Shown here: in pieces, positions 5,210 through 64,000 of the stretch | How the letters are laid out: each line of letters starts with the position of its first letter | How positions within the stretch are numbered: position 1 is the first letter of the stretch | Assembly (NCBI GenBank): GCA_001798135.1 | Contig: MGRJ01000030.1 | Coordinates: forward strand, 321-64,320 | DNA: 64,000 nucleotides | DNA from: Deltaproteobacteria bacterium RIFCSPHIGHO2_02_FULL_40_28 | GTDB taxonomy: Bacteria; UBA10199; 2-12-FULL-40-28 | Direction of reading: 5' to 3' | The notes under the pieces: model-generated | Seen by the model: only the letters and a program-made list of their open reading frames with translations | What the model was told of the DNA's origin: nothing | Databases searched by the model: none | Made by a program: the position numbers and the translations under genes

Positions 5210-5265
5210 ACTAATAAAAAATAAAAGGTGCCGCCCTTCCAGCACCATAACAAGTTCGTGTAAGC

Positions 5266-5276
5266 GTGCCTGGCAC
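5266..5276 (+). repeat. GTGCCTGGCAC palindromic site, copy 1
   Basis: taagcGTGCCTGGCACcaat, downstream of hicB. Confidence 0.9.
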
Positions 5277-5296
5277 CAATACGTTGTTGAGGCATA

Positions 5297-5769: not shown

Positions 5770-5810
5770 CCCGATTATTTGCTTAAAAAAATAGGTTCCG
5801 ATTTGCAAGC

Positions 5811-5821
5811 GTGCCTGGCAT
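5811..5821 (+). repeat. GTGCCTGGCAC site, copy 2 (GTGCCTGGCAT)
   Basis: tttgcaagcGTGCCTGGCATcaag. Confidence 0.85.
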
Positions 5822-5835
5822 CAAGCTTCAACATT

Positions 5836-12842: not shown

Positions 12843-13343
12843 ATGTATTTACAAAATGTTAAAAATATATGTGAAATAAGAGGGTTAAACTATGCTGACC
12901 TATCACGTTTGGCAAATGTCTCTAGGGCTACAGTTACAAAATGGTTTAATCAAGGGGGCAAAAAAGATTGGGTCAATATTGAAACAGCTTCTATTATTCA
13001 CTTAGCCAACGCCCTCAACATACCAGCTTATTTTTTTCTTCAAAATCGTTCCCTTTTGTCTCACTATCAAACTGCTTTTTTATGGGATTCCCTTTATCCC
13101 AACATGGAAGCTTTTGTTAAAGCAGCCCGTGAATTTAGATTTCCTGCTATAGCCCGCCTTGTACAGGTGTGTGGCTTTCATGAATCACAAACTCTTTTGG
13201 GTAAAAAAATTATTTTGGAATTTGATCGTTATAAAAAATTAATTAAACCCGCGCGTCGAAAACAATTGGAGATTTTATGGCCACTTTACGCATCCCAGAT
13301 ACACCTCCCTTCCCATACCTCTCGAAAAAAAGTACACCATTAA
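12843..13343 (+). CDS. HTH protein, putative type IV antitoxin partner
   Basis: N-terminal XRE HTH (LNYADLSRLANVSRATVTKW); directly upstream of an AbiEii-like gene. Confidence 0.6.
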   Translation: MYLQNVKNICEIRGLNYADLSRLANVSRATVTKWFNQGGKKDWVNIETASIIHLANALNIPAYFFLQNRSLLSHYQTAFLWDSLYPNMEAFVKAAREFRFPAIARLVQVCGFHESQTLLGKKIILEFDRYKKLIKPARRKQLEILWPLYASQIHLPSHTSRKKVHH

Positions 13344-14059
13344 CCCTCGACAAAACACTTATCCATATTTTTTCACAAGTGGATAAAAAAGTGTGGCTTG
13401 TAGGAGGAACAGCTTTAGCTGGTTTTTATGCGGAACACCGCAAATCAGATGATTTAGATTTATTTGTTGGAGATTTAATCTCTTACCAAACAACCCTTCG
13501 TGCTGTTCAATCCCTGAAATCAAAAGGAGCCATTTTTTCTAGTGAATCTAGCTCTTCCAATTATTATCATTCCCTTGTTCAATTTTTAAACCATCAATTT
13601 ACCATCGATATTGTTTTGGATGAACAATTGCATCGTATAGGCCTAGGTGTGAAAACAAAAGACTCAATTTGGGTTGCTGATATTAATACCTTGCTTGCAA
13701 CAAAAATTGGAACTTTAGTAAGCCGCTGCTCTGAAAAAGATTTGTTTGATCTCGATTGGCTTTTAACTCGTGTTCCTGAATACAAAATAAAAGATTTGAT
13801 TGAAACAGGTGCCCAAATTGATGCCGGCCTTAACGCTGAAACCTTACTCATCAGCCTTCAGGGTGCCACTCTCCGAAAAGAAGCATGTCATTTTCTGCTT
13901 GCTGAATCAAAAATAACAATCGATCAAGCTTATAAAAAAATTGAAACTCTTCGTAAGACTTTAATTCAAAAACTACTTGATCATGAAAAAAAATCCCTCT
14001 TGTCCGAAAAATCTTTAGCCATTAAACAAACCTTAAGTGATTTTAAAAAGATAAAGTAA
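13277..14059 (+). CDS. AbiEii/AbiGii-family nucleotidyltransferase toxin
   Basis: LVGGTALAGFYAEHRKSDDLDLF, TKIGTLVSR..KDLFDL; start uncertain. Confidence 0.8.
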   Translation: MATLRIPDTPPFPYLSKKSTPLTLDKTLIHIFSQVDKKVWLVGGTALAGFYAEHRKSDDLDLFVGDLISYQTTLRAVQSLKSKGAIFSSESSSSNYYHSLVQFLNHQFTIDIVLDEQLHRIGLGVKTKDSIWVADINTLLATKIGTLVSRCSEKDLFDLDWLLTRVPEYKIKDLIETGAQIDAGLNAETLLISLQGATLRKEACHFLLAESKITIDQAYKKIETLRKTLIQKLLDHEKKSLLSEKSLAIKQTLSDFKKIK

Positions 14060-14063
14060 AAAA

Positions 14064-14087
14064 TTAAATGAGAAATTCAGCTTTTCT
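14064..14087 (-). repeat. Displaced copy of the alaS 3' end (att-like)
   Basis: Encodes RKAEFLI* versus alaS KKAESLI* (15497..15520); 19/24 nt identical. Confidence 0.65.
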
Positions 14088-14454: not shown

Positions 14455-14585
14455 GGGCTTGTTGAAAAATGTAGTTTTCCACTAATTCTGTCATTCCCGC
14501 GGAGGCGGGAATCCAGTCTTTTCAATAAGTTCTGGATCCCTGCCTTCGCAGGGATGACAGAGGAATGACATTCTTCAACAGACCC
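14455..14585. mobile_element. 131-bp MITE, copy 1 (TIRs, internal REP doublet, TTAAT TSD)
   Basis: Ends GGGCTTGTTGAAAAATGT / ACATTCTTCAACAGACCC; TTAAT on both sides; exact reverse complement of 57971..58101. Confidence 0.9.
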
Positions 14586-15496: not shown

Positions 15497-18124
15497 TTAA
15501 ATAAGCGATTCGGCTTTTTTAAGGGCTTCGGAAAGCTTAGAAACATCAGGGCCACCAGCTTGGGCCATATCGGGACGGCCGCCACCTTTTCCTCCCACGA
15601 TGGGGGCAATTTCAGAAATTATTTTTCCTGCATTGTATTTTGCAGTCAAATCAGCACTTACAGTAACAATCAATAAAACTTTATCCGCTCCTTTGGCGGC
15701 AATAACTGCAATTCCACTCCCTAAGCGGGATTTGACTTGATCAGAAAATTCGCGCAGGGCTTTTGGATCATCCATCTCAATTTCAATGGAAAGAAAACGC
15801 ACTCCTTTAATTTCTTTTACATTTTGTAAATAATCGCTTCCCCCTCCCCCACCACTTGCTACCTTTGATTTTAAACGCGTTATTTCTTGTTCCAATTCTC
15901 GAATGCGCTCACTTGTTTTTTTAATTTTAAGGGAAAGCTCCTCGGGAGATGATTTTAACAAAGAAGCTAGTTCACCCAACAGGGCTTCCATCTCTTGAAA
16001 AAGAGCAATGGCTTTCATTCCGGTAACTGCCTCAATACGTCGCACCCCAGAAGCTACAGAAGATTCACTTGTAATTTTAAAAATCCCAATTTCACCTGAG
16101 GCATCAAGATGCGTACCTCCACACAATTCCATGCTGTAAGGTCCAATGGTTACCACCCTCACCCGATCCCCATATTTATCACCAAAAAAAGCAGTGGCTC
16201 CTTTTTTCTTAGCTTCATCAAAACTGTGTTCTTCTTTGGTTACAACATAGTTTGCTTGAATTACCTCATTTACACGCCTTTCAATCTTTTGAATTTCTTC
16301 CCGCGTTAAAGCTGCAAAATGAGAAAAATCAAAACGAAGACGTTCGGGCGTAACAAGTGATCCTGCCTGCTTTACATGATCTCCTAAAAGTTCCCGCAAG
16401 GCTGCATGCAAAATGTGAGTGGCTGTGTGGTTTAACATGGTGGAACGACGACAAACTAAATTAACCTGTAAATGAATTTTATCTCCTACCTTTATCAAAC
16501 CTGAAATCACTTTTCCTTGATGAACAATTAATCCATCCACTGGTTTTTGAGTGTCATCAATTTCTAACTTGGCTTTACCTGATGTAATAACTCCCTTATC
16601 CCCCACTTGTCCGCCAGATTCTCCATAAAAAGGAGAATCGTTGGAAATCACTTCCACTTCAACACCGTTTTCTGCTTGCTCTACAGGGTTTCCTTCTTTG
16701 ATCAAAGCCACAATTGTAGAGTTGGCCTCTAAACCTTCATACCCCACGAAGTGGGTTTTACCTTTTTCTTGAACTAATTGTTGATAAATGGCTCCCACTT
16801 TTTCTTGTCCACTGCCCTTCCAGGCAGCACGCGCACGTTTCTTTTGATCTTCCATGGCTGAATCAAAACGAGTTTTATCTACACTCATTCCTTTTTCAGC
16901 TAAAATAATTTCAGTGAGATCGAGTGGAAAACCAAAGGTATCGTACAATTTAAAGGCGGTGGCCCCATCAAAAATTTTTCCTTTTTGATGTGAGGTTTCT
17001 TCCTCAATCATTTTCAAACCTTTTTCCAAAGTTTCAAGAAAATTTTCTTCTTCTATTTTAGCTGCCTTTAAAATGAACTCTTGATTTTTTTCTAAATCTG
17101 GATAGGCGGCTCTCATTTCTGCCACAAGGGTTTTAACTCCTTCATAAAAGAAGGGTTCATTCATTTTAAGCAAACGTCCATGGCGAATAGCTCGGCGCAT
17201 GATGCGCCTTAAAACATAACCACGTCCTTCGTTAGAAGGAAGAACTCCATCTCCAATTAAAAAAGTCATGGCTCTTAAATGGTCGGCTAGTACCCGAAGT
17301 GAAACATCCTGCTCTGGATTTTTTCCGTAAGCAACACCGGTTCTTTTTGAAAAAAAATGAATGAGTGGAAAAAATAAATCGGTTTCGTAATTGGAATTTT
17401 TTTTCTGTAAAACAGCGGCGAGACGTTCTAAGCCCATACCAGTATCTATCGATGGTTTTGGAAGTGGTGTTTGCGCACCTTTTACAGTGCGCTCAAATTG
17501 CATGAACACCAAGTTCCAAATTTCCATAAAATCGTCGGGATGGGTGGCAGGATTTCCTGGGGAAGGTTTGCTTTTTAAGGTAGCACCCAAATCAATATGA
17601 ATTTCGGAGCATGGGCCGCAAGGGCCTACCTCTCCCATGGACCAAAAATTATCGGCTTCATCTAAACGGATCATTCTTTTTTGAGGGAAGTTCACTTCCT
17701 TTTGCCAGAGCTTTTCAGCCTCAAAATCTTCTCGAAACACCGTTACCCAAAGCACATCTGCGGGAATTTTCACTGTTTCTGTTAAAAATTCCCAAGCATA
17801 AACAATGGCTTCTTTTTTAAAATAATCTCCAAACGAAAAATTTCCCAACATTTCAAAAAAGGTATGATGACGAGGTGTACGGCCTACATTTTCTAAATCG
17901 TTGTGCTTACCAGAAACACGCATACACTTCTGAGAACTAACAGCTCTCGTATAATCGTGTTTTTCTTCCCCGGTAAAAAGATTTTTAAACGGAACCATCC
18001 CTGCATTTACAAAAAACAAGGTAGGATCGTTAAAAGGAACAAGTGAGCTACTTGAAACAAGATGATGTTTTTTGGACTCAAAATATTTAAGGAACTTTTG
18101 GCGGATTTCGTTTCCTGTCAGCAT
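15497..18124 (-). CDS. alaS: Alanine--tRNA ligase
   Basis: LFFVNAGM, RHHTFFEMLGNFSFGDYFK, DTGMGLER, HTATH, ELCGGTH, GGGRPDMAQAGG. Confidence 0.99.
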   Translation of the reverse strand: MLTGNEIRQKFLKYFESKKHHLVSSSSLVPFNDPTLFFVNAGMVPFKNLFTGEEKHDYTRAVSSQKCMRVSGKHNDLENVGRTPRHHTFFEMLGNFSFGDYFKKEAIVYAWEFLTETVKIPADVLWVTVFREDFEAEKLWQKEVNFPQKRMIRLDEADNFWSMGEVGPCGPCSEIHIDLGATLKSKPSPGNPATHPDDFMEIWNLVFMQFERTVKGAQTPLPKPSIDTGMGLERLAAVLQKKNSNYETDLFFPLIHFFSKRTGVAYGKNPEQDVSLRVLADHLRAMTFLIGDGVLPSNEGRGYVLRRIMRRAIRHGRLLKMNEPFFYEGVKTLVAEMRAAYPDLEKNQEFILKAAKIEEENFLETLEKGLKMIEEETSHQKGKIFDGATAFKLYDTFGFPLDLTEIILAEKGMSVDKTRFDSAMEDQKKRARAAWKGSGQEKVGAIYQQLVQEKGKTHFVGYEGLEANSTIVALIKEGNPVEQAENGVEVEVISNDSPFYGESGGQVGDKGVITSGKAKLEIDDTQKPVDGLIVHQGKVISGLIKVGDKIHLQVNLVCRRSTMLNHTATHILHAALRELLGDHVKQAGSLVTPERLRFDFSHFAALTREEIQKIERRVNEVIQANYVVTKEEHSFDEAKKKGATAFFGDKYGDRVRVVTIGPYSMELCGGTHLDASGEIGIFKITSESSVASGVRRIEAVTGMKAIALFQEMEALLGELASLLKSSPEELSLKIKKTSERIRELEQEITRLKSKVASGGGGGSDYLQNVKEIKGVRFLSIEIEMDDPKALREFSDQVKSRLGSGIAVIAAKGADKVLLIVTVSADLTAKYNAGKIISEIAPIVGGKGGGRPDMAQAGGPDVSKLSEALKKAESLI

Positions 18125-22721: not shown

Positions 22722-22755
22722 AAACGGGTCCTGTCATTGTGAAAGACCCGTTTTT
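22720..22755. terminator. Bidirectional terminator
   Basis: AAAAACGGGTC-N14-GACCCGTTTTT between convergent genes. Confidence 0.75.
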
Positions 22756-23941
22756 ATTGAGATAATAAATTGAGTCTCAAATGATTTATGGCAAGACTTG
22801 CCACAAGCACTTTAAACCATTCACGATTAAGTTTAAAACAATAATCATAACAAACAACATCATCTGGAGTGGCCAAAGCAATAAAAACTGTTCCAACGGG
22901 CTTATCCACCGTTCCCCCCGTAGGGCCTGCAATTCCGGTGACAGCTAATGCAAAATCCGTTTCAGCTTTTTTTTGCATCCCTAAAGCCATTTCACAAGCA
23001 CACTCAGAACTTACTGCCCCATAAGTTTGAAGAGTTTCATTTTTAACACCTAAAAAATCTTTTTTGATTTGATTATCATAGGCCACTACCCCACCCTTAA
23101 AATAACTACTTGAGCCAGAAATATTGGTAATGCGGCTAGCAATAAGCCCTCCCGTGCACGATTCTGCCACACTCAGTGTTTTTTTCTGAGAACTTAAAAG
23201 AAAACCAAGAACCGATTCCAGGCTTTCTTCCCCTTCTCCATAAATGGCTTTCCCAACCTTTTCTTTTAAAAAAGAAATCCCCTCTTCCAAAAATTTGTGC
23301 GCCTCTTTTTCTGTTTTTCCCCACGAAGAAAGTTTAATCAAAGTTTCAGGAAAATGAGCTCTAAATCCCACACGCACATTTCCAATTTCTGTTTTATCAT
23401 GATAAAAAGAACTTAAAGCATGATCAAGTTCGGCTTCGGCCATTCCAAAACAACGAAAAAGTTTACTTTTAAAAATTTTTTTCCCTTTTTTCTTGGCTAA
23501 AATCTCTGGCAAAATATTTTTTCCAAATAAAGCCTTCATCTCCTTGGGAACACCAGGTAAAAAATAAAAGGAAACTCCCTTAAATTTTAAGCCAATGCCC
23601 GGCGCTGTTCCCACAGGATTTAAATAAACCTTGGCCCCACTGGGAATAAGGGCTTGTTTTGATTTATTTTGTACTAATTTTTTATGGAAAGTTTTTGCAG
23701 CAATTTCAATTGTAAAATCATCTCCCGTAGGACCCAAACCACCAGTTACAATAACAACATCGGCCCTTCTGGCTGCTAAAAGCAAGGCCTGGCGGATGGT
23801 ATTGGGATCATCCCTTACTGCACTTTGATAATCTACAATCAAACCTTGGAGCCATAATGCTTCCGAAAGAAAGACAACATTGGTATTTACAATATCGCCA
23901 GAAAGGATTTCATCCCCAATGGTAATGATTTCCACTTTCAT
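22754..23941 (-). CDS. cinA: CinA (MoCF-like domain plus PncC NMN deamidase)
   Basis: IGDEILSG, TGGLGPTGDD, LPGVPKEM, AESCTGG, TGIAGPTGG. Confidence 0.95.
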   Translation of the reverse strand: MKVEIITIGDEILSGDIVNTNVVFLSEALWLQGLIVDYQSAVRDDPNTIRQALLLAARRADVVIVTGGLGPTGDDFTIEIAAKTFHKKLVQNKSKQALIPSGAKVYLNPVGTAPGIGLKFKGVSFYFLPGVPKEMKALFGKNILPEILAKKKGKKIFKSKLFRCFGMAEAELDHALSSFYHDKTEIGNVRVGFRAHFPETLIKLSSWGKTEKEAHKFLEEGISFLKEKVGKAIYGEGEESLESVLGFLLSSQKKTLSVAESCTGGLIASRITNISGSSSYFKGGVVAYDNQIKKDFLGVKNETLQTYGAVSSECACEMALGMQKKAETDFALAVTGIAGPTGGTVDKPVGTVFIALATPDDVVCYDYCFKLNREWFKVLVASLAINHLRLNLLSQ

Positions 23942-25827: not shown

Positions 25828-25838
25828 ATGTTTCCTTT

Positions 25839-26306
25839 CTATAAAATTTTTTTCTCAATAAAATTTTTTTGATCACTATTCCACAAAAATTCTGATGCCT
25901 CTTTAACACGGCCATTATAAACTGAAACCACAATATAGGATAATTGTGGAAACAAAGGCTCTCCCCAGGGAGCTGCCATCCCCTTATCTTCATCAGAAAA
26001 ATAAACTCCATGCTCGGGATGAGAATGATAAATGGATAGAATTTCATGCCCTTTTTTCTTTGCTAATTCTTCTGCCTCTTGCATCTCTTTAGGATCAATG
26101 GAGTATGCTGTTTTAGCATCTCGCGTGTAACGTTTGGGATCCTGGGCATGCAGTTTATTTTGGATATTGCTACAGTTCCGTATAACCTGTGCACAACGTC
26201 TGCCTTCCTTAACAGAACCCAAGACAAAACCACAAGCTTCGTGGGGATAACCCTGGTGGCAGTATGCGAAAATTTCATCTAATAATTGTTGGGAAATAAT
26301 TAACAT
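25839..26306 (-). CDS. JAB/Mov34 metallopeptidase (Mec-like)
   Basis: YPHEACGF and YHSHP..S.ED JAMM motif. Confidence 0.9.
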   Translation of the reverse strand: MLIISQQLLDEIFAYCHQGYPHEACGFVLGSVKEGRRCAQVIRNCSNIQNKLHAQDPKRYTRDAKTAYSIDPKEMQEAEELAKKKGHEILSIYHSHPEHGVYFSDEDKGMAAPWGEPLFPQLSYIVVSVYNGRVKEASEFLWNSDQKNFIEKKIL

Positions 26307-26321
26307 ACTTACCAAGCAATG

Positions 26322-26430
26322 GTCATCCCTCCATCATTTGTCATCCCTGCGAAGGCAGGGATCCATCTTAAAATCCAAAAATGGATTCCCGCCGGAGTTT
26401 ACCCTCGCGAAGGCGGGGGCGGGAATGACA
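26322..26430. repeat. GTCAT/dRS3-like REP doublet
   Basis: GTCATCCCTGCGAAGGCAGGGATCCA...TGGATTCCCGCC...GGCGGGAATGAC. Confidence 0.85.
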
Positions 26431-26440
26431 GAGGGATACA

Positions 26441-27340
26441 TTACCACTTCATCCCTTCAAAATAACGATCTCCATGATCTGAAAAAACAGTTACCACAAC
26501 ACCTGCTTTAAGCCTTTTGGCTACTTCCATCGAAGCAACCATAGCGGCCCCAGAAGAATACCCCACAATCAGTCCCTCTTCTTTTCCTAATCTTTCAGCC
26601 ATATCATAAGCAGGCTCAGTTTCAATCCACATCACTTCATCTAAATTTTTTTCGTGATAAATGCCTGGAACAATGGAAGTAGGCATGTGCTTTAAACCCT
26701 CCAATCCATGCATGGCATGGGCGGGCTGGGCCCCAATACAAACAATGTGAGAATTATGTTCCTTTAATCTACGGGTAATTCCCATCACTGTTCCAGAAGT
26801 GCCCATGGTAGCCACAAAGTGGGTAATAGCCCCCTTGGTTTGCTGAAGGATTTCAACTCCCGTTGTTTCATAATGAGCTTCGGAATTATCGGGATTATTG
26901 TATTGATCGGGCATAAAGTATTTGCCCGGATTTTCTTGATAAATCTTGTGTGCAAGACGGATGGCGCCATCGGATCCTTCCATTTCGCTACTAAAAGTAA
27001 TGCTGGCTCCAAAGGTTTTAGCAATATCTTTGCGTTGTTGTGAAGCATTGGCCGGCATTACCAACTCTACTCTATACCCTAAAACAGCACCCACCATGGC
27101 ATAGGCTACTCCTGTGTTTCCAGAAGTGGGATCCATAATAATTTTATCTTGAGTTAATTTTTCTTGGGCAATTGCTTTTTTTATCATCCAGTAGGCAGGA
27201 CGATCTTTAACCGAACCTCCAGGATTAAAATATTCGAGTTTGGCGTACACAGACACTTGTTGAGAAAGCTCTTTGGTAACCTCACGAATTTTAACGAGGG
27301 GGGTATTTCCAATTTTTTCCAGAATCGAATTTAAAATCAT
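26441..27340 (-). CDS. cysM: PLP cysteine synthase, CysM-like
   Basis: NPGGSVKDR, TSGNTG, DQYNNP, GTSGT, DHGDRY. Confidence 0.88.
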   Translation of the reverse strand: MILNSILEKIGNTPLVKIREVTKELSQQVSVYAKLEYFNPGGSVKDRPAYWMIKKAIAQEKLTQDKIIMDPTSGNTGVAYAMVGAVLGYRVELVMPANASQQRKDIAKTFGASITFSSEMEGSDGAIRLAHKIYQENPGKYFMPDQYNNPDNSEAHYETTGVEILQQTKGAITHFVATMGTSGTVMGITRRLKEHNSHIVCIGAQPAHAMHGLEGLKHMPTSIVPGIYHEKNLDEVMWIETEPAYDMAERLGKEEGLIVGYSSGAAMVASMEVAKRLKAGVVVTVFSDHGDRYFEGMKW

Positions 27341-27369: not shown

Positions 27370-27455
27370 GTCATCCCGGCATCATTTGTCATCCCTGCGA
27401 AGGCAGGGATCCATCTTTGAATTTAAGATAGATTCCCGCCTTCGCGGGAATGACA
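27370..27455. repeat. GTCAT/dRS3-like REP doublet
   Basis: Shares an identical 38-bp stretch (27380..27417) with 26332..26369. Confidence 0.85.
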
Positions 27456-27710: not shown

Positions 27711-27724
27711 GGTGTTTCCTTTCT

Positions 27725-28963
27725 TTAAGATTTTTTATTCGCTTCATACAATTCTTCAAATGCTTTTAAACTAGGTTGAATAATGGGCGGCTTATCTAGC
27801 TTATGAACTACAGCCTCTTGGGTTTTAAGACCATTCCCTGTAATGCAAATTACTAACGATTCATCTAACGGGATACGCCCATCCTTGATTAATTTTTGAG
27901 CACATCCCAAAGTAACCCCTCCGGCTGTTTCAGCAAACACACCTTCGGTTTCAGCTAACAATCGAATGGCATCAATAATTTCATCATCACTTACATCTTC
28001 ACTCCATCCCCCCGTTTGTTTAATAGCCTTGGCTGCATAATAACCATCAGCTGGATTTCCAATAGCTAAAGATTTGGCAATGGTATTGGGTTTAACGGGT
28101 TTAAAAAAATCCTGATTTTCTTTTACACAAGTAGAAATGGGGGCACACCCAGTAGCTTGAGCCCCATACATTTTTGTACTGGAAGAAGAAATAAATCCCA
28201 ATTGTTCTAATTCATAAAAAGATTTGTGAATTTTGGTTAACAGCGAACCACTGGCCATGGGCACAACGATATGTTGCGGAATTTTCCATCCTAGTTGTTC
28301 GGCAATTTCATAGCCCATGGATTTAGAACCCTCTGCATAAAAAGCTCTCATGTTGATATTGACAAAAGCCCAATTATATTTACCGGCAATTTCACTGCAC
28401 AAGCGATTTACTTCATCATAGGTGCCCTTAATTCCCACCAAATTAGTTCCATAAATCATGGTACCTAAAACTTTAGTGGCTTCTAAATCGTAGGGAATAA
28501 AAACAAAACTATGCAAATCAGCGGCGGCAGCCAAGGCTGCAACCGAATTAGCTAAATTGCCTGTAGATGCACAGGCCACTACCTTAAAACCAAACTCACG
28601 AGCTTTAGAGAGAGCCACCGAAACCACACGATCTTTAAAAGACAGAGTAGGATAATTAACAGCATCGTTTTTGATATAAAGCTCTTTGATTCCTAAAACT
28701 TTTGCTAAACGATCTGCTCTCCGAAGAGGAGTAAAGCCCACTTGACGTCCTACAGTTGGCTCACCATCAATGGGCAAAAGTTCTCGGTAACGCCACATAT
28801 TAGGTGCACGACTTTGAATTTTATTTTTGGTTAAATCCTTGCCAATTTTTTCATAATCATAAACAACCTCCAAGGGACCAAAACAAAGTTCGCACACATG
28901 GATGGGCGCCTTTTCTCTTTCTTTGCCACACTCACGACATTTTAAACCAGACACATACGACAT
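27725..28963 (-). CDS. thrC: Threonine-synthase-like PLP enzyme
   Basis: N-terminal CREC..CELC, PTLSFKDR, CASTGNLANS, SLAIGNP, ITGNGLK. Confidence 0.8.
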   Translation of the reverse strand: MSYVSGLKCRECGKEREKAPIHVCELCFGPLEVVYDYEKIGKDLTKNKIQSRAPNMWRYRELLPIDGEPTVGRQVGFTPLRRADRLAKVLGIKELYIKNDAVNYPTLSFKDRVVSVALSKAREFGFKVVACASTGNLANSVAALAAAADLHSFVFIPYDLEATKVLGTMIYGTNLVGIKGTYDEVNRLCSEIAGKYNWAFVNINMRAFYAEGSKSMGYEIAEQLGWKIPQHIVVPMASGSLLTKIHKSFYELEQLGFISSSSTKMYGAQATGCAPISTCVKENQDFFKPVKPNTIAKSLAIGNPADGYYAAKAIKQTGGWSEDVSDDEIIDAIRLLAETEGVFAETAGGVTLGCAQKLIKDGRIPLDESLVICITGNGLKTQEAVVHKLDKPPIIQPSLKAFEELYEANKKS

Positions 28964-28966
28964 AAC

Positions 28967-29884
28967 TTACTCCTTAAAATAACGCTCAATACTAAAATAA
29001 CGCTGACCTGCATCAGCTAAAAAAGTTAAAACTTTCTTTTTAGGGCCCAACTCCTTTGCAATTTTTAAAGCGGCATATACATTAGCCCCAGAAGAAATTC
29101 CTAGAAGCATTCCCTCTTCCTTGGCTAAACGCTTCGTCATTTGAAAAGCCTCAATATCATCTACCGTTATCACTCGATCAATCAAACTTTTATCCAGATT
29201 TTTAGGAATAAAACCCACTCCCAATTGTTGAATTTGATGAGAGCCAGAAATACCACCTGAAATAACCGCCGACTTTTTTGGTTCAACAGCTACAATGAGC
29301 GTGTTTTTATTTTTTTTCTTTAAAACACGCCCTACGCCCGTTAAACTTCCTCCCGTTCCCACGCCTAAAACCAGAGCATCAACCCCATGTGGAAAATCAT
29401 TTAAAATTTCAACCGCCGTGTTTTCAGCATGTGCCTTTGGATTAACGGGATTTTCAAACTGCTTTGGCGAATAAGAATCCGGGTTTTCTTGTAAAACCTT
29501 TGTTGCTCTTTTAATAGCTCCTTCTACCCCCTCACTTTGAGGGGTCAAAACCAACTTAGCTCCAAAACCATCAAACATTTTTCGACGCTCTAAACTGGCA
29601 TCCTCAGGCATAAAAAGCAGCAGCTTTAATTTTTTAACCGCACAAACCATGGCAAGAGCCACCCCTGTGTTTCCTGCAGTGGCATCTACAATCAGGGTAG
29701 AAGGTTTAATTTGTCCCCGAGCATAAGCATCTTCAATCATGGCAAGGGCAATACGATCTTTAACCGAATAACTTGGATTTCCAGCCTCATATTTTCCATA
29801 AATACTAGCCATAGCTGCCCCCCCCACCCGATTTAGTTTGATAATGGGAGTATTTCCAATGGCTTCTAAAATGGTGGCCTGCAT
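28967..29884 (-). CDS. cysK: Cysteine synthase A
   Basis: IGNTP, NPSYSVKDRIA, TAGNTG, GVGTGG, HQIQQLGVGFIP, GISSGA. Confidence 0.85.
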   Translation of the reverse strand: MQATILEAIGNTPIIKLNRVGGAAMASIYGKYEAGNPSYSVKDRIALAMIEDAYARGQIKPSTLIVDATAGNTGVALAMVCAVKKLKLLLFMPEDASLERRKMFDGFGAKLVLTPQSEGVEGAIKRATKVLQENPDSYSPKQFENPVNPKAHAENTAVEILNDFPHGVDALVLGVGTGGSLTGVGRVLKKKNKNTLIVAVEPKKSAVISGGISGSHQIQQLGVGFIPKNLDKSLIDRVITVDDIEAFQMTKRLAKEEGMLLGISSGANVYAALKIAKELGPKKKVLTFLADAGQRYFSIERYFKE

Positions 29885-56130: not shown

Positions 56131-56191
56131 TTTTGTAAAGGATTATTTTACTCAATATAGGCGTAACATCTGCTTCAAATGCTTTGCAAGC

Positions 56192-56202
56192 GTGCCTGGC
56201 AC
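56192..56202 (+). repeat. GTGCCTGGCAC site, copy 5
   Basis: aatgctttgcaagcGTGCCTGGCACcaagattacaaagatt. Confidence 0.9.
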
Positions 56203-56207
56203 CAAGA

Positions 56208-56900
56208 TTACAAAGATTCCAATCGCTTCGCTAAAACAGCATAATCCCTTTTCACTGCCATGGCGGTTCGGTAGGAACCGTAACACTGTTTTGCCAACGC
56301 GTAGGTACTCACATTCTGGTTGAGTTCCATTTGAGCAAACATATCGGCACGGTGAGTGGGGCCAATCAAAACACGAAAGCGATACGATGGATGAACTTGA
56401 ACAAGCTCCGCTGGTGTCAGGATGTCTTCGGGACGATGTCGCAATAATTTACTGGGAACACGCAAACACGTTTTAGCAAAACGTGAATCCTCACCGTTTC
56501 TTTGGATCAAGAAGCTTCTGTTCTCACCTGCAATACCAATTCTCCTCGAAGACACCAGAGAAAGCAGTTTCTTAAACCGGATATCGTGATGACGAATTTG
56601 TGCAAATGCCGCCCAAAATATTCGAACATGTTTGAATTCTTTTTGATCCAAATTCAAAACCAGATTCACTAGACGATCCGCCAGAACTTTATCGGCATGA
56701 ACCTTCAACCAATCCACGAGCAAAGACTGAACGCGCCAATCGCCTTTAAGACCTTCAATCGACGCGGCAACCAAGGTGTCTTCAATGTTGGGATTTTGGA
56801 CTGGTTTTCCGAACAACCGAAAACCAATACCAATCAAACACGATGTCAACTCGTCGCCTGATGGGTAAAACTCAGGAATAATTGTACGCTTAAAAGTCAT
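56208..56900 (-). CDS. Hypothetical partner of a DUF6036-like nucleotidyltransferase
   Basis: 230-aa ORF whose start overlaps the upstream NTase stop; PNIEDTLVAASIEG..RV.SLLVDWL. Confidence 0.65.
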   Translation of the reverse strand: MTFKRTIIPEFYPSGDELTSCLIGIGFRLFGKPVQNPNIEDTLVAASIEGLKGDWRVQSLLVDWLKVHADKVLADRLVNLVLNLDQKEFKHVRIFWAAFAQIRHHDIRFKKLLSLVSSRRIGIAGENRSFLIQRNGEDSRFAKTCLRVPSKLLRHRPEDILTPAELVQVHPSYRFRVLIGPTHRADMFAQMELNQNVSTYALAKQCYGSYRTAMAVKRDYAVLAKRLESL

Positions 56901-58149: not shown

Positions 58150-58214
58150 AAATTTCAAGGATTATTTTCAGGCAACGCTTATCGGTGTCATTGATTTTTC
58201 AATGGCTTGCAAGC

Positions 58215-58225
58215 GTGCCTGGCAC
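58215..58225 (+). repeat. GTGCCTGGCAC site, copy 6
   Basis: cttgcaagcGTGCCTGGCACcaagattcaccaagattacgattac. Confidence 0.9.
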
Positions 58226-58293
58226 CAAGATTCACCAAGATTACGATTACGAAATGACTTTCATTTTCTATCTCTTGGTTTATAATCTTTATT

Positions 58294-58442: not shown

Positions 58443-58931
58443 ATGAAAACCGTTCATCCTTATTTTCTTATTCTGGGCAAATTGACCAAAGAGGGGGTGC
58501 GTTACGGAGTTGTTGGCCAAATAGGAGCTTCTTTCTATGGCTCTGATCAAACCACCTATGATCTGGATATTTTTGTGGAACCCCAAGAAAAAAATCTTTC
58601 CAAGGTAAGGCGCCTGCTTAAAAAAGAAGGGTTGATAGAAATAGCTATTGTCGGAGGCCAAGCGGTAAAACCTTCTCCGACAAATAAAGAGGTGATTGAT
58701 CGGCAGATCACCCTTTTGTATGCCGACCCTTATGGTTTGACCATTGATGTGCTTACGGCTATTAGCGGAGTTAATTTTAAAAAGGTTTGGAAAGGAAAAA
58801 AACTTTTTAAAATGAGGGAAGAAAAAATTTATGTGGCTTCCTTAACAGATATTATTCATTCCAAAAAGAGTGCGAACCGACCCAAAGATCGTCTTCATTT
58901 GTCCCGACTTAAGGCTTTACTTAAAAAATAA
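58443..58931 (+). CDS. Minimal nucleotidyltransferase (DUF6036-like)
   Basis: YGVVGQIG..YG..TTYDLDIF, IDVLTAISGV, VASLTDIIHSKK..RPKD. Confidence 0.75.
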   Translation: MKTVHPYFLILGKLTKEGVRYGVVGQIGASFYGSDQTTYDLDIFVEPQEKNLSKVRRLLKKEGLIEIAIVGGQAVKPSPTNKEVIDRQITLLYADPYGLTIDVLTAISGVNFKKVWKGKKLFKMREEKIYVASLTDIIHSKKSANRPKDRLHLSRLKALLKK

Positions 58932-58943
58932 TGCTTTGCACGC

Positions 58944-58984
58944 GTGCCTGGCACAAAGATTCTGGCACCAAGATTCACAAGATT
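58944..58984 (+). repeat. GTGCCTGGCAC site, copy 7, plus partial tandem duplication
   Basis: GTGCCTGGCACaaagattCTGGCACcaagattcacaagatt. Confidence 0.9.
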
Positions 58985-59834: not shown

Positions 59835-60252
59835 GTCATCACGAGGAGGCCTATGGCCGACGTGGTGATCCAGGTTAAAGAGAGCCTGGATTGCTTTAGC
59901 CCCTACGTTGCCCCCCAACGGGGCCCCTTTGGGTTGGCGCAGTTCTCGCTCCCTCATGTCTACGATGTGGCACTGATATCAATTATTTTCCAATGGTTTG
60001 CAAGCGTGCCTGGCACCAAGATTGTAAGACTCTACCCCCTCCAACTCCCCCTTACAAAGGGGGAGAGTACAGATGGATCCCGGCCTTCGCCGGGATGACA
60101 AGAGCAGCATGGATGACAGAGTGGGGGAGACATTTTTCAACAATCCCTCAATGTAGGCGTAACATCAGCTTCATAGGGACTTTAATCCAGGTTTATTGGA
60201 TTTGAATGCTTTGCACACGTGCCTGGCACAAAGATTCGGAACCCGCCCCTAC
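59835..60252. repeat. Mosaic of REP-type families including GTGCCTGGCAC copies 8 (60006) and 9 (60219) and a MITE-end remnant
   Basis: GTCATCACGAGGAG..GTGATCCA..TGGATTGCT; CTCCCCCTT-ACA-AAGGGGGAG; GGATCCCGGCCTTCGCCGGGATGAC; ACATTTTTCAACAATCCC; GCCCCTAC. Confidence 0.8.
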
Positions 60253-61714: not shown

Positions 61715-63142
61715 CTATAATACTTGTGATAATTCTGTAATAGCTCTTTCAACACTCTTTCGTGTTAACTCAGTAGAACTTTCTTTAAGATTCTTGCCCT
61801 CATCAACAAAGGGAAAATTCGGAATATGTGCTACTGTATGAGCATGCCATGTAAGCTTATAAACAGGAGGATCATAACTTGCACCATTTGCAGCCTTCTG
61901 CTCTTCTAACTTCCAAGATCCTTCATTCTTTGTAAAACTATTTTGTCCTCCAGATATATTCCCCCATGAAACTAGAACTGTGCCAGGAGAAGGGTCTGAT
62001 CTACGTCCTTGAATTCTGTAATAAACTGTTCCAACATCAACACCCTTAAATTCCCCTCTGACACTATATGTGAGAATATCCCCACTTAGCTTCGAATCAC
62101 TATTACCATTACCACTAGCAATAATTCTATCAAAAGCTGGTTTATTCTGACCTAATAATATTTTTACCGCTTCATTAATATTTCTAATTGTTACATACCC
62201 AACAATTGTTCGGTCAAAATCAAAAGTATTACCACCTAAATCATTAATAGTTGGTTCTGGATCCGAAGTGACTTTATTTAACCTTCCTGAAAATTGAGAA
62301 GCTGGTACTGGAGGTAAAGGCGCCACAGGCACTGCCCCTGGTACTTCAGGAGGAAGTACCACTCCTGGTACATCAGGTACTCTAGGAGGTACTGGTGTTC
62401 TCCCACCAGGGGGAACTGGTACTGCTCCGGGGACAGGAGTTACGCCTGGTGCTGGTGTTGCCCCTTCTACAGGCAGCGCTTCACCACCCGCTGGTGCTGC
62501 TCCTTCTACTGGCGCACCCTCTACTGGTTGCCCACCTTCTTCAACTGCGGTTTCTGCACCCTCAGTTGATTCTTCTGATTCTGTATCATCTGTAATTGTT
62601 CCTGGCGCAATGCTAAAACGAAGACCCGCCCCAAAAGCCGATCCACCAACAGAATGACCAATATTGTTATTAAAATAAATCGATGAAACTCCAATGCTTC
62701 GATAACCCGCACGCGCACGAAGGCCGGCTGTAAAATCAATCTTTTTTCCCTTCATCAAAAAATCTAAACCTAACTGCGCACCCGCTCCCACATAGGTGTT
62801 GGTGGTTACAAAGGGATCAGAAAGCCCACTCCCAAAAGGAGCCTGCCCACGCATAATGCCCATCTCGGCATAGGGCCCTAACGAAATGCCAATATTTTTT
62901 AAACGAAGTTCGGCACCTGCACTAACATCCAAACCATAGCGGTCCATCTGAGCATTTGTTTTTTGATCATCAATGTTTTTCCGGGTTTGTGAAACAACAG
63001 CAGCACCTTCTATGTAGAGCAAGCCATTATTAGCATGAAAGCCAAACGTTTCTTCGGTTCCTAAATACGCACCTTCGTTATCCTTTTTTGTTGTGAAAAT
63101 ATCAACGCCGCCACCAACATAGGGCGTAATTTTAATGGCCAT
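61715..63142 (-). CDS. Hypothetical protein: beta-strand-rich N-terminal domain, Pro/Ala/Val linker, C-terminal domain
   Basis: GGAGG RBS; alternating OMP-like strands; EGA(P/A) and PVP repeats. Confidence 0.7.
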   Translation of the reverse strand: MAIKITPYVGGGVDIFTTKKDNEGAYLGTEETFGFHANNGLLYIEGAAVVSQTRKNIDDQKTNAQMDRYGLDVSAGAELRLKNIGISLGPYAEMGIMRGQAPFGSGLSDPFVTTNTYVGAGAQLGLDFLMKGKKIDFTAGLRARAGYRSIGVSSIYFNNNIGHSVGGSAFGAGLRFSIAPGTITDDTESEESTEGAETAVEEGGQPVEGAPVEGAAPAGGEALPVEGATPAPGVTPVPGAVPVPPGGRTPVPPRVPDVPGVVLPPEVPGAVPVAPLPPVPASQFSGRLNKVTSDPEPTINDLGGNTFDFDRTIVGYVTIRNINEAVKILLGQNKPAFDRIIASGNGNSDSKLSGDILTYSVRGEFKGVDVGTVYYRIQGRRSDPSPGTVLVSWGNISGGQNSFTKNEGSWKLEEQKAANGASYDPPVYKLTWHAHTVAHIPNFPFVDEGKNLKESSTELTRKSVERAITELSQVL

Positions 63143-63320
63143 GTCATGCCTCCCGCTGCAACCTGAATGGGCTCAATTGAATGAAAACTCAAGTAAAACC
63201 AATCTTCAAATGCGGTATCGGCCTTCCCTTGAAAAAAGTTGTGAGGAATTTTTAAATTGAAGTAAAATTATATAACCTATTGATTTATATATGTTTTATT
63301 TGTAATTTGAAGGGGGTTGG

Positions 63321-63352
63321 CTATCCTCTTGGATGAGATTTTTCATGGGCCT
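63321..63352 (-). repeat. Displaced copy of the xerD 3' end (att-like)
   Basis: 29/32 nt identical to 63770..63801; encodes AHEKSHPRG* versus AHEKFHPRG*. Confidence 0.9.
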
Positions 63353-63724
63353 TTATTTTTTATTTTCTTCTTCGATCCTAACTTTCAAAAATTCTACATC
63401 CATCTTATCACTGGGACGAATTGTATCCTTCATGCGAATTAATAATTCTTTTTTAACAACAGGAATTGAAACTCCATCTAATGAAAAAAATTCGATGCTA
63501 TTTTTAGCTTCAGTATAATCAATGCCACAAGCCTTGAACTTCTGGCGCGCGTGAATAGCGGCCATCTGTTGAATCATCCATTGATGAGCCTCTTTCATAG
63601 TTTTAAATCGATAAACCCCTTTAGGAATAAGAGCCCTTCCCTGAATTTGAGACATTGTTTTTTGTAAAATTCTGGCATCGTTGAGAAAATTCTCTCTTCC
63701 ATGGCGACTCGTAATAAGCTTCAT
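63353..63724 (-). pseudogene. Probable in-frame deletion fusion of a small antitoxin-like ORF and an NTase C-terminus
   Basis: ..PKGVYRFKTMKEAHQWM..IHAR fused to ..KACGIDYTEAK..DGVSIPVV..LLIRMKDTIRPSDKMD; no GG/DxD catalytic N-lobe. Confidence 0.55.
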
Positions 63725-63732
63725 AATAATAA

Positions 63733-63761
63733 ATTATAAGACTCAAAAAGTGATAAGTCAA
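63733..63761 (-). promoter_or_regulatory. sigma70 promoter, near-leaderless
   Basis: TTGACT-17-TATAAT-8 nt-ATG. Confidence 0.7.
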
Positions 63762-63769
63762 TGAGGGTC

Positions 63770-64000
63770 CTATCCCCTCGGATGAAATTTTTCATGGGCC
63801 TCAATGAGGTGTTTTCTAGAAACATGGGTATAAATTTGGGTGGTGGAAATATCGGCATGCCCCAACATCACCTGAACCGATCGCAAATCGGCCCCACCTT
63901 CCAGCAAATGAGTTGCAAAAGAATGACGCAAACTATGCGGTGAAATATTTTGTTTAATACCGGCTTTCAAGGCATAAAATTTAATGCGCTTCCAAAAAGC
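63770..64000 (-). CDS. xerD: Tyrosine recombinase XerD, 3' part (runs off window)
   Basis: [51 protein letters not shown] is the XerD-type signature. Confidence 0.9.

Follow-up and report, generated by a model that had tools for sequence, protein, structure and literature searches.

Chromosomal toxin-antitoxin (TA) loci are widespread yet lie mostly outside recognisable mobile elements, and how this has come about is an old open question. Cis-mobilizable elements (CIMEs) and their tandem accretion at the 3′ ends of genes have reportedly been described, by Pavlovic in 2004 and by Bellanger in 2011. For units of restriction-modification (RM) genes, a mode of entry has been described as insertion with long target duplication (Nobusato et al. 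2000; Furuta, Abe and Kobayashi 2010, PMC2853133). RM addiction genes are found without mobility genes between direct target repeats of at least 30 bp, and in a Haemophilus influenzae case the repeats, of 46 bp, overlap gene 3′ ends, by a mechanism that is unexplained (PMC2853133). Here we analyse a stretch of 64,000 nucleotides of contig MGRJ01000030.1 from Deltaproteobacteria bacterium RIFCSPHIGHO2_02_FULL_40_28, called the window in what follows, in which a small TA-like cassette stands directly behind the recombinase gene xerD, between two copies of the last 32 nt of that gene. The locus is best read as a likely TA counterpart, by analogy, of the insertions with long target duplication of RM genes.

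The likeness to the RM insertions lies in the addiction-type unit, the lack of a mobility gene and a repeat longer than the duplications left by transposons. The direct repeat around the insert exceeds 30 bp (32 nt, 29/32 identical, unique in the window), and no mobile element or mobility gene lies in the insert or next to it. The locus differs from the RM insertions in its cargo, which is TA-like, and in its repeat, whose 32 nt are at the low end of the class and end exactly at a stop codon. Furthermore, the RM long target duplications were defined by genome comparison, whereas the xerD case is read without an empty-site genome.

The window ends within xerD and holds its last 76 codons and stop (63770-64000, minus strand; stop codon at 63770-63772), a fragment that matches Pfam Phage_integrase and NCBIfam XerD. 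The final 32 nt of the gene (63770-63801, minus strand) recur in the same orientation at 63321-63352. A search of the window allowing three mismatches returned these two positions only, with none expected (100 shuffles). The best further match to either copy, on both strands of the whole window, was 21-22/32, and the maximum in five shuffles was 21/32. The first-pass annotation had reported the duplication at 29/32, with two of three differences synonymous, a description that the sequence bears out. No third copy of the tail is present in the window, hence no larger island bounded by the xerD tail. Among 88 open reading frames (ORFs) of at least 90 aa screened, none had its last 32 nt repeated downstream above 21/32, and Rfam gave no match on 62900-64000.

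Read on the minus strand, the sequence of the functional tail is GAG GCC CAT GAA AAA TTT CAT CCG AGG GGA TAG and encodes AHEKFHPRG*, and the displaced copy reads AAG GCC CAT GAA AAA TCT CAT CCA AGA GGA TAG (KAHEKSHPRG*). Within the repeat, TTT/TCT is non-synonymous (F to S), and CCG/CCA and AGG/AGA are both synonymous. The block of identity is limited exactly by the TAG stop on one side, where both copies end, and by AGGCC on the other, and the 32-mer holds a short palindrome, ATGAAA-AA-TTTCAT. The gene-proximal copy (63770-63801), in an attL-like position, retains the HEKFHPRG* found throughout the XerD clade, and the distal copy (63321-63352, minus strand), attR-like and non-coding, has a serine at the conserved phenylalanine. 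Because HEKFHPRG* is conserved in XerD homologues down to approximately 53% identity, this serine looks like the decay of an unselected sequence. It could be argued that there was no insertion at all, the second tail having matched by chance or being the final piece of an unrelated recombinase gene, as only 32 nt are involved and the C-termini of tyrosine recombinases are conserved. This is extremely unlikely: 29/32 is far above the chance ceiling of 21-22/32, the copy, 449 nt away, has the same orientation and keeps register with a stop codon, and no further recombinase-like sequence flanks it.

The unit between the two tails is 417 bp long (63353-63769), has a GC content of 34%, versus 39% for the window, and consists of a promoter and one ORF. 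The promoter, TTGACT-17-TATAAT (63733-63761, minus strand), agrees with the consensus at 11 of 12 positions; its -35 box lies 8 nt past the xerD stop codon and its -10 box ends 8 nt before the ATG of the ORF. Given this short distance, and as no Shine-Dalgarno sequence precedes the ATG, the cassette transcript is predicted to be leaderless. The same placing of the promoter next to the ATG was seen at four of the metagenome loci described below (L020, L023, L026 and L028). At the other end, the TAA stop of the ORF (63353-63355, minus strand) abuts the displaced xerD tail with a spacer of 0 nt.

The ORF (63353-63724, minus strand, 123 aa) falls into two parts. Residues 1-64 (63533-63724, minus strand) resemble a nearly complete small antitoxin-like protein with the motif PKGVYRF..EA.QWM, and match the partner protein encoded at locus L021 with 55% identity over 64 aa (E 2e-26). 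Residues 64-123 (63356-63535, minus strand) align with the C-terminal third of a DUF6036/AbiEii-like nucleotidyltransferase (NTase) of approximately 165 aa, covering residues 106-161 of a 168-aa family member. A protein search with the 123-aa sequence returned 47 homologues, mostly of approximately 165 aa and some precomputed as DUF6036 or AbiEii, to which only residues 64-123 aligned, over their last third. Because residues 1-64 match the upstream partner and residues 64-123 the last third of the NTase, the ORF is, to judge from these alignments, an in-frame fusion of partner and NTase produced by a deletion of approximately 0.3 kb, the partner being kept almost whole. The part deleted in frame comprises the N-terminal approximately 105 residues of the NTase, with its conserved IGGFAV and DIDLL blocks, which we take to be the catalytic motifs. 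The 123-aa sequence had no match in Pfam or PHROGs and only insignificant ones, far below cut-off, in NCBIfam (ZorE, E 0.061) and PADLOC (PtuB, E 0.0024). It lies below the Pfam gathering cut-offs for AbiEii and DUF6036; an intact member of the family, P0002, is itself borderline (DUF6036 23.4 versus 23.6, AbiEii 22.1 versus 22.5). Promoter and fused ORF account for the 417 bp in full, with no fragments of other genes. Thus the description as an approximately 420-bp unit made of a promoter and a fused antitoxin/NTase remnant was accurate; that the unit is integrase-less was likewise borne out, since 417 bp leave no room for an integrase, and xerD is the only recombinase in the neighbourhood gene table.

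The host gene proved to be a genuine XerD. Its complete product, of 300 aa, was obtained from longer contigs of the same organism (L006:8471-9373) and scored 366 bits against TIGR02225 (cut-off 329.6, residues 9-299), versus 304.6 against the XerC model (cut-off 335.15) and 133 and 86 against two integron-integrase models (cut-offs 265 and 435). In these longer contigs the gene is flanked upstream by trmB and the ribosomal-protein/rpoA operon; the DNA downstream of it is accessory and rich in TA genes throughout. The layout was the same in 18 of 18 contigs of the organism, which come from several studies, and 13 of them, compared over 900 nt from xerD to the neighbouring 475-aa gene, were identical or differed by one base. 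That gene, next to the cassette (61715-63142, minus strand), encodes a protein whose N-terminal part is beta-rich and is joined by a long Pro/Gly/Val-rich linker to a C-terminal domain. As a side observation, one metagenome contig joins xerD to another upstream region, with an ACPS-like gene in place of trmB (L017:1-1450 compared with L006:8212-8470); the switch occurs at a GC-rich element resembling repetitive extragenic palindromic (REP) sequences approximately 100 nt before xerD, and reflects either an assembly chimera or a rearranged strain.

The family to which the cassette belongs was surveyed at 80 metagenome loci encoding an intact NTase. At 54 of the 80, the NTase gene overlaps with a partner gene upstream of it, marked by the motif P[RK]GVYRF..EEAD.WM, and on this conserved two-gene synteny the partner and the NTase are putatively the antitoxin and toxin of a type IV TA pair. 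In intact members (L021, L023 and most of L020-L099), the partner ORF overlaps the NTase ORF, in a different frame, by approximately 60-75 nt, and has its start codon 6-8 nt from the -10 box; the long overlap together with the leaderless layout is unusual, and is conserved across phyla. In the pairs of loci examined, nucleotide sequences are 78-86% similar as far as the borders of the cassette, beyond which the flanks bear no relation to each other. A comparison of the 76 nt around the NTase stop with 350 nt lying upstream of the cassette revealed border repeats (z above 5) in 8 of the 59 loci tested.

At L037, the cassette stands behind a gene for an Fe-S assembly protein (FeS_assembly_P, Pfam E 2.8e-15). 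A second copy of this gene's last 39 nt, up to and including its TGA, begins inside the NTase stop codon and differs by one substitution and an 11-nt deletion. Judged by its sequence, this appears to be an exact counterpart of what is seen at xerD, in an unrelated organism of high GC. At L042, a syntenic relative of L037 (78% nucleotide identity), the cassette is present and no tail remnant is visible. At L025, the cassette lies directly behind an intact tRNA-Gln(UUG) gene, and the 3′ end of the tRNA is found again after the NTase stop. Sites of 30-42 nt resembling the 3′ end of tRNA-Gln (TTCGAAT ... CCTCCCAGCCA) bound the cassette at L022, L023, L026, L028, L034 and L067, and at L065 such sites flank it in opposite orientation. 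These tRNA-Gln-like sites share an insertion of approximately 5 nt after the T-loop that real tRNA-Gln genes do not have; they therefore seem to travel with the cassettes, which favours specific recognition. At L023 (3281-4924), between modC and a glycosyltransferase gene, four of them delimit an NTase cassette, a FitA-like/PIN cassette and an empty unit of 80 nt; in the 6.8 kb of this locus ARAGORN found no tRNA gene, and no XerD-like recombinase was detected. Such comparisons indicate that the compact cassette itself is probably the moving unit, leaving the target tail on both sides.

Two further loci with repeats are of other kinds. At L020 (354-4040), an apparent flanking repeat was considered as a target duplication and rejected: a 20-nt site, GTCAGACGGAGTAAATTAAC, is present there in at least 6 copies, directly after the stop codon of at least two units, in an array comprising a zinc-ribbon fragment, two different DUF6036 NTase pairs and a transporter of the major facilitator superfamily. 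It is another type of cassette-array site. At L099 (3165-3292 and 4054-4182), the cassette lies between an intact gene for a 982-aa Ser/Thr kinase and a pseudogenised second copy made of the 5′ approximately 146 nt of the kinase gene and a short C-terminal piece, with one frameshift, the repeat measuring 129-146 nt. Between the two copies, motif codons differ only synonymously and variable positions are replaced, so that the differences look like allele or paralogue divergence. This long repeat was rejected as a case of the xerD type, being a diverged kinase 5′ end in a different geometry.

We think it somewhat probable that a non-autonomous TA-like cassette entered by a Campbell-type crossover between a xerD tail that it carried and the chromosomal one. 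Whereas the repeat, the anatomy of the unit, its fused ORF and the return of the footprint at other loci are observed, the insertion event, a circular intermediate, the catalyst and the present function of the unit are what we infer, as follows. The original cassette would have been about 0.7-0.75 kb long, with the promoter, a partner gene of approximately 72 aa and an overlapping NTase gene of approximately 165 aa. A single reciprocal recombination between the xerD-tail copy adjacent to the cassette and the chromosomal tail would leave xerD with its consensus C-terminus intact and, behind it, first the cassette and next the displaced tail, which would start to decay. With no recombinase encoded by the cassette, the crossover would be catalysed in trans. 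Later, an in-frame deletion of approximately 0.3 kb would have removed the catalytic half of the NTase, and the remaining promoter-driven fusion of partner and NTase C-terminus, presumably no longer toxic, may persist as an orphan antidote. The first-pass annotation had suggested an insertion at the xerD 3′ end; the unit does look like one, bringing a replacement tail, and the same family leaves the same gene-end footprint in unrelated organisms.

That the tail copy came with the cassette is favoured because the tRNA-type sites travel with cassettes, and a block of identity that reaches right to the gene end is to be expected when incoming DNA must supply a replacement end. In a true long target duplication, the incoming DNA would have had no xerD tail, the resident tail would have been duplicated in a repair- or replication-coupled insertion, and the three differences would have arisen later. 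This would be in keeping with the published addiction-gene pattern, in which repeats vary from 30 to over 400 bp without mobility genes (PMC2853133), with the spread of repeat lengths in our survey (24, 32, 39, about 42 and 129-146 nt), and with the fact that it is the displaced copy, not under selection, that has the F to S change. However, the tRNA-Gln-like sites move with the cassettes, as judged from their idiosyncratic insertion and their presence at L023, with no tRNA gene in its 6.8 kb; the L099 copies differ like diverged functional alleles, unlike the decay of a perfect duplicate; and a duplication of this kind gives no reason for ending exactly at the stop codon. We regard it as rather improbable.

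As to what catalysed the Campbell-type crossover, a trans-acting site-specific recombinase is a tentative possibility, and it is favoured by the short repeats, of the size of simple sites, by the conserved idiosyncratic tRNA-like sites and by the arrays. Host homologous recombination on the approximately 32-nt homology, or the repair route proposed for RM units, is favoured by the varied tails, the variable repeat lengths and the lack of a recombinase, and seems to us a doubtful but real candidate. Homologies of 24-40 nt at approximately 90% identity are a poor substrate for RecA; a recA gene is present in the window. We lean slightly towards the site-specific recombinase.

The identity of the target gene invites a third catalyst, XerC/XerD, acting on the 32-mer as a dif-like site within the recombinase's own gene, in the manner of integrative mobile elements exploiting Xer (IMEX). 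A simple site of approximately 30 bp is of the size class used by Xer recombinases, and the palindrome ATGAAA-AA-TTTCAT lies within xerD itself. By inspection, though, the 32-mer lacks the 11-6-11 architecture of dif, its dyad having a centre of 2 nt and mismatched outer arms, and the footprints at alaS (see below), the Fe-S assembly gene and tRNA-Gln use quite different sequences. To our knowledge, IMEX elements integrate at dif, where they are flanked by dif-like sites of 28 bp, and not in xerD; the xerD-tail site is of another kind. Catalysis by XerC/XerD is thus very unlikely, and a dif/IMEX reading was rejected on the same grounds, the site being within the xerD coding sequence. A serine-integrase reading, suggested by the central AA dinucleotide, was also rejected, because the attL and attR produced by these enzymes have little in common apart from the crossover dinucleotide. 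The first-pass annotation had named XerD among the possible drivers of the integration; we found nothing to indicate more than coincidence, and xerD appears to be an incidental target.

Another way to obtain an integrase-less unit between two att-like tails is decay. A larger, integrase-bearing island at the xerD tail would then have been deleted down to the TA pair and two att scars. Integrases classically insert elements at the 3′ ends of genes, the element bringing a replacement end with it; the DNA downstream of xerD is accessory and TA-rich, and the cassette already has one internal deletion. CIMEs, by definition, keep attL and attR and have lost their integration and transfer genes (PMC5704250). 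The xerD locus shares with them this state, its two tail copies being retained with no such genes between them, and the array at L023 recalls CIME accretion, by which arrays can form through repeated insertion at the same tail (PMC5704250). But the borders are tight (8 nt and 0 nt) and enclose no debris of any integrative and conjugative element (ICE), of an integrative and mobilizable element (IME) or of other genes. The same tight layout is found independently at L037, L025 and L023, and random deletions should not repeatedly stop at a promoter and a stop codon. Around the 80 loci, tblastn with XerD detected no tyrosine recombinase up to a distance of 3.5 kb. Viral contigs contained neither the TA family nor a match to a degenerate xerD-tail pattern, the family was nearly absent from plasmids (a single distant match), and no integrase-bearing relative was seen in the loci, viral contigs or plasmids. 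Moreover, CIMEs measure kilobases, being ICEs or IMEs that have decayed and left recognisable remnants, whereas the unit here is 0.42 kb long (about 0.75 kb when intact), holds a TA operon only and has no known cognate integrase-bearing element. An origin as a decayed island is therefore unlikely.

[quoted passage not shown] It differs in that those elements encode an integrase and carry arm-type sites, for neither of which there is space here. The cassettes also resemble those of integrons and of clusters of attC sites lacking integron-integrases (CALINs), which often include TA cassettes: they are sub-kilobase, single-operon units with extremely tight borders, occur in arrays, have a recombination site directly after the stop codon, and their recombinase is encoded elsewhere. 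An integron reading was nevertheless rejected. By inspection there are no RYYYAAC/GTTRRRY cores, hence no attC with R″/R′ cores and hairpin, and the bounding sites are direct copies of the host gene end; and where an integron would have a divergent integron integrase gene (intI) with attI, the neighbour here is a housekeeping XerD, followed at its 3′ end by the cassette.

Several results weigh against entry of a mobile cassette by a Campbell-type crossover. Approximately 85% of the family loci have no border repeat. The differing tails (xerD, alaS, tRNA-Gln, Fe-S assembly gene) would need several trans-acting specificities, which argues for homology-driven recombination, and no recombinase candidate is known from the neighbourhood and the 80 family loci, no genome-wide integrase search having been made. 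Empty sites and circles, the expected traces of a mobile unit, did not appear: the organism's 18 contigs showed no empty site, circle or population variant, and Logan contigs of 12 public groundwater and soil runs, an assembly form that drops rare variants, yielded no joints and the same clonal layout only. Homologues of the 475-aa gene were sought as a synteny anchor, and its product proved to be an orphan that matched only itself in a search of 5.8 billion proteins and had no Pfam or NCBIfam match.

The xerD relatives were no more helpful as to the ancestral state. The XerD cluster holds a single distinct relative (95% aa identity, approximately 90% at the nucleotide level by eye from the alignment), whose gene ends in TGA and is followed by 22 nt, up to the contig end, that match nothing in the window; no close relative showing the ancestral state was thus available. 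An exact-pattern scan of metagenome contigs for the junction downstream of this relative's xerD returned nothing, and a XerD scan of genome contigs gave one irrelevant archaeal match. The four nearest relatives beyond it (57-60% aa) have single tails, without duplicate, and unrelated downstream genes. The xerD tails of these four relatives are nearly identical in DNA to that of the window (for instance L102: CATGAAAAATTTCATCCAAGAGGCTAA), so a cassette with such a tail could find a match in a wide range of hosts.

The first-pass annotation had also drawn parallels with alaS and, with less assurance, cinA. The tail of alaS (KKAESLI*, 15497-15520, minus strand) is followed directly by a promoter and by two TA pairs, Phd/RelE-like and HigB/HigA, which begin 6 nt past the alaS stop, and a possible displaced tail (RKAEFLI*, 14064-14087, minus strand), matching at 19/24 and in register with the stop, lies at their far end. 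This 19/24 was the best score of the 88 ORFs and was reached by 1 in 400 shuffles. The alaS duplicate is thus a second, weaker locus, probable and, given multiple testing, not proven; the parallel holds moderately. The cinA parallel falls away, as the tail of cinA (22754-23941) had no duplicate above chance (18/32, 15/24). Converging on the displaced alaS tail, at 12843-14059 (plus strand), a 166-aa ORF resembling helix-turn-helix proteins overlaps a 260-aa ORF with an AbiEii-like NTase motif (LVGGTALAGFY...DDLDLF); the pair has no NCBIfam match and may, to judge from this motif, be a further type IV TA pair.

Other repeats were noted in the window. A dispersed repeat with the core TTGCAAGCGTGCCTGGCACCAAGATT (palindrome GTGCC-T-GGCAC) occurs between small TA and defence-type genes downstream of xerD, in co-oriented copies at 5239-5283, 5784-5828, 56165-56209, 58188-58232, 58917-58961, 59979-60023 and 60192-60236. 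It looks like the boundary site of a cassette array, by analogy with the 20-nt sites of L020 and the tRNA-like sites of L023. A REP-like palindrome, GTCATCCCTGCGAAGGCAGGGATCC, is found at 26322-26374 and 27370-27422 in intergenic spacers of a sulfur/pyridoxal phosphate (PLP) operon, and again at 14480-14570, within an element separating higB from higA. In the same region as the operon, a 24-nt repeat (22/24; 25829-25852 and 27713-27736) overlaps the stop of a thrC-like gene and recurs 1.9 kb downstream, and near the segments 26547-26611 and 29085-29149 the two genes of 299 and 305 aa are paralogous (71-72% along short stretches), which suggests a local duplication in the operon.

The xerD site is a real, well-defined insertion scar, the TA variant of a known and mechanistically unexplained kind of insertion. 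Within 480 bp it displays the whole anatomy of one answer to the question of how TA loci spread: gene tail, leaderless promoter, operon and displaced tail. As a broader and still tentative proposal, which we hold with less assurance than the reading of the locus itself, TA operons from many families may be mobile as minimal cassettes that lack a recombinase and whose sole mobility part is a captured, conserved gene end of 25-45 nt, either the tail of a protein gene up to its stop codon or the 3′ end of a tRNA. If so, a circle made of one tail copy and the operon would integrate at that tail in any genome conserving it, and recombination between the two tail copies would release the cassette again. 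This would amount to an integron-like cassette economy without a dedicated platform, to which the alaS block and the tRNA-Gln-type arrays would belong as well as the xerD cassette. Recurrence of the footprint at an Fe-S assembly gene, at tRNA-Gln and in small arrays makes the idea testable. For annotation, displaced tails would be cheap markers both of past insertions and of the ancestral end of a gene.

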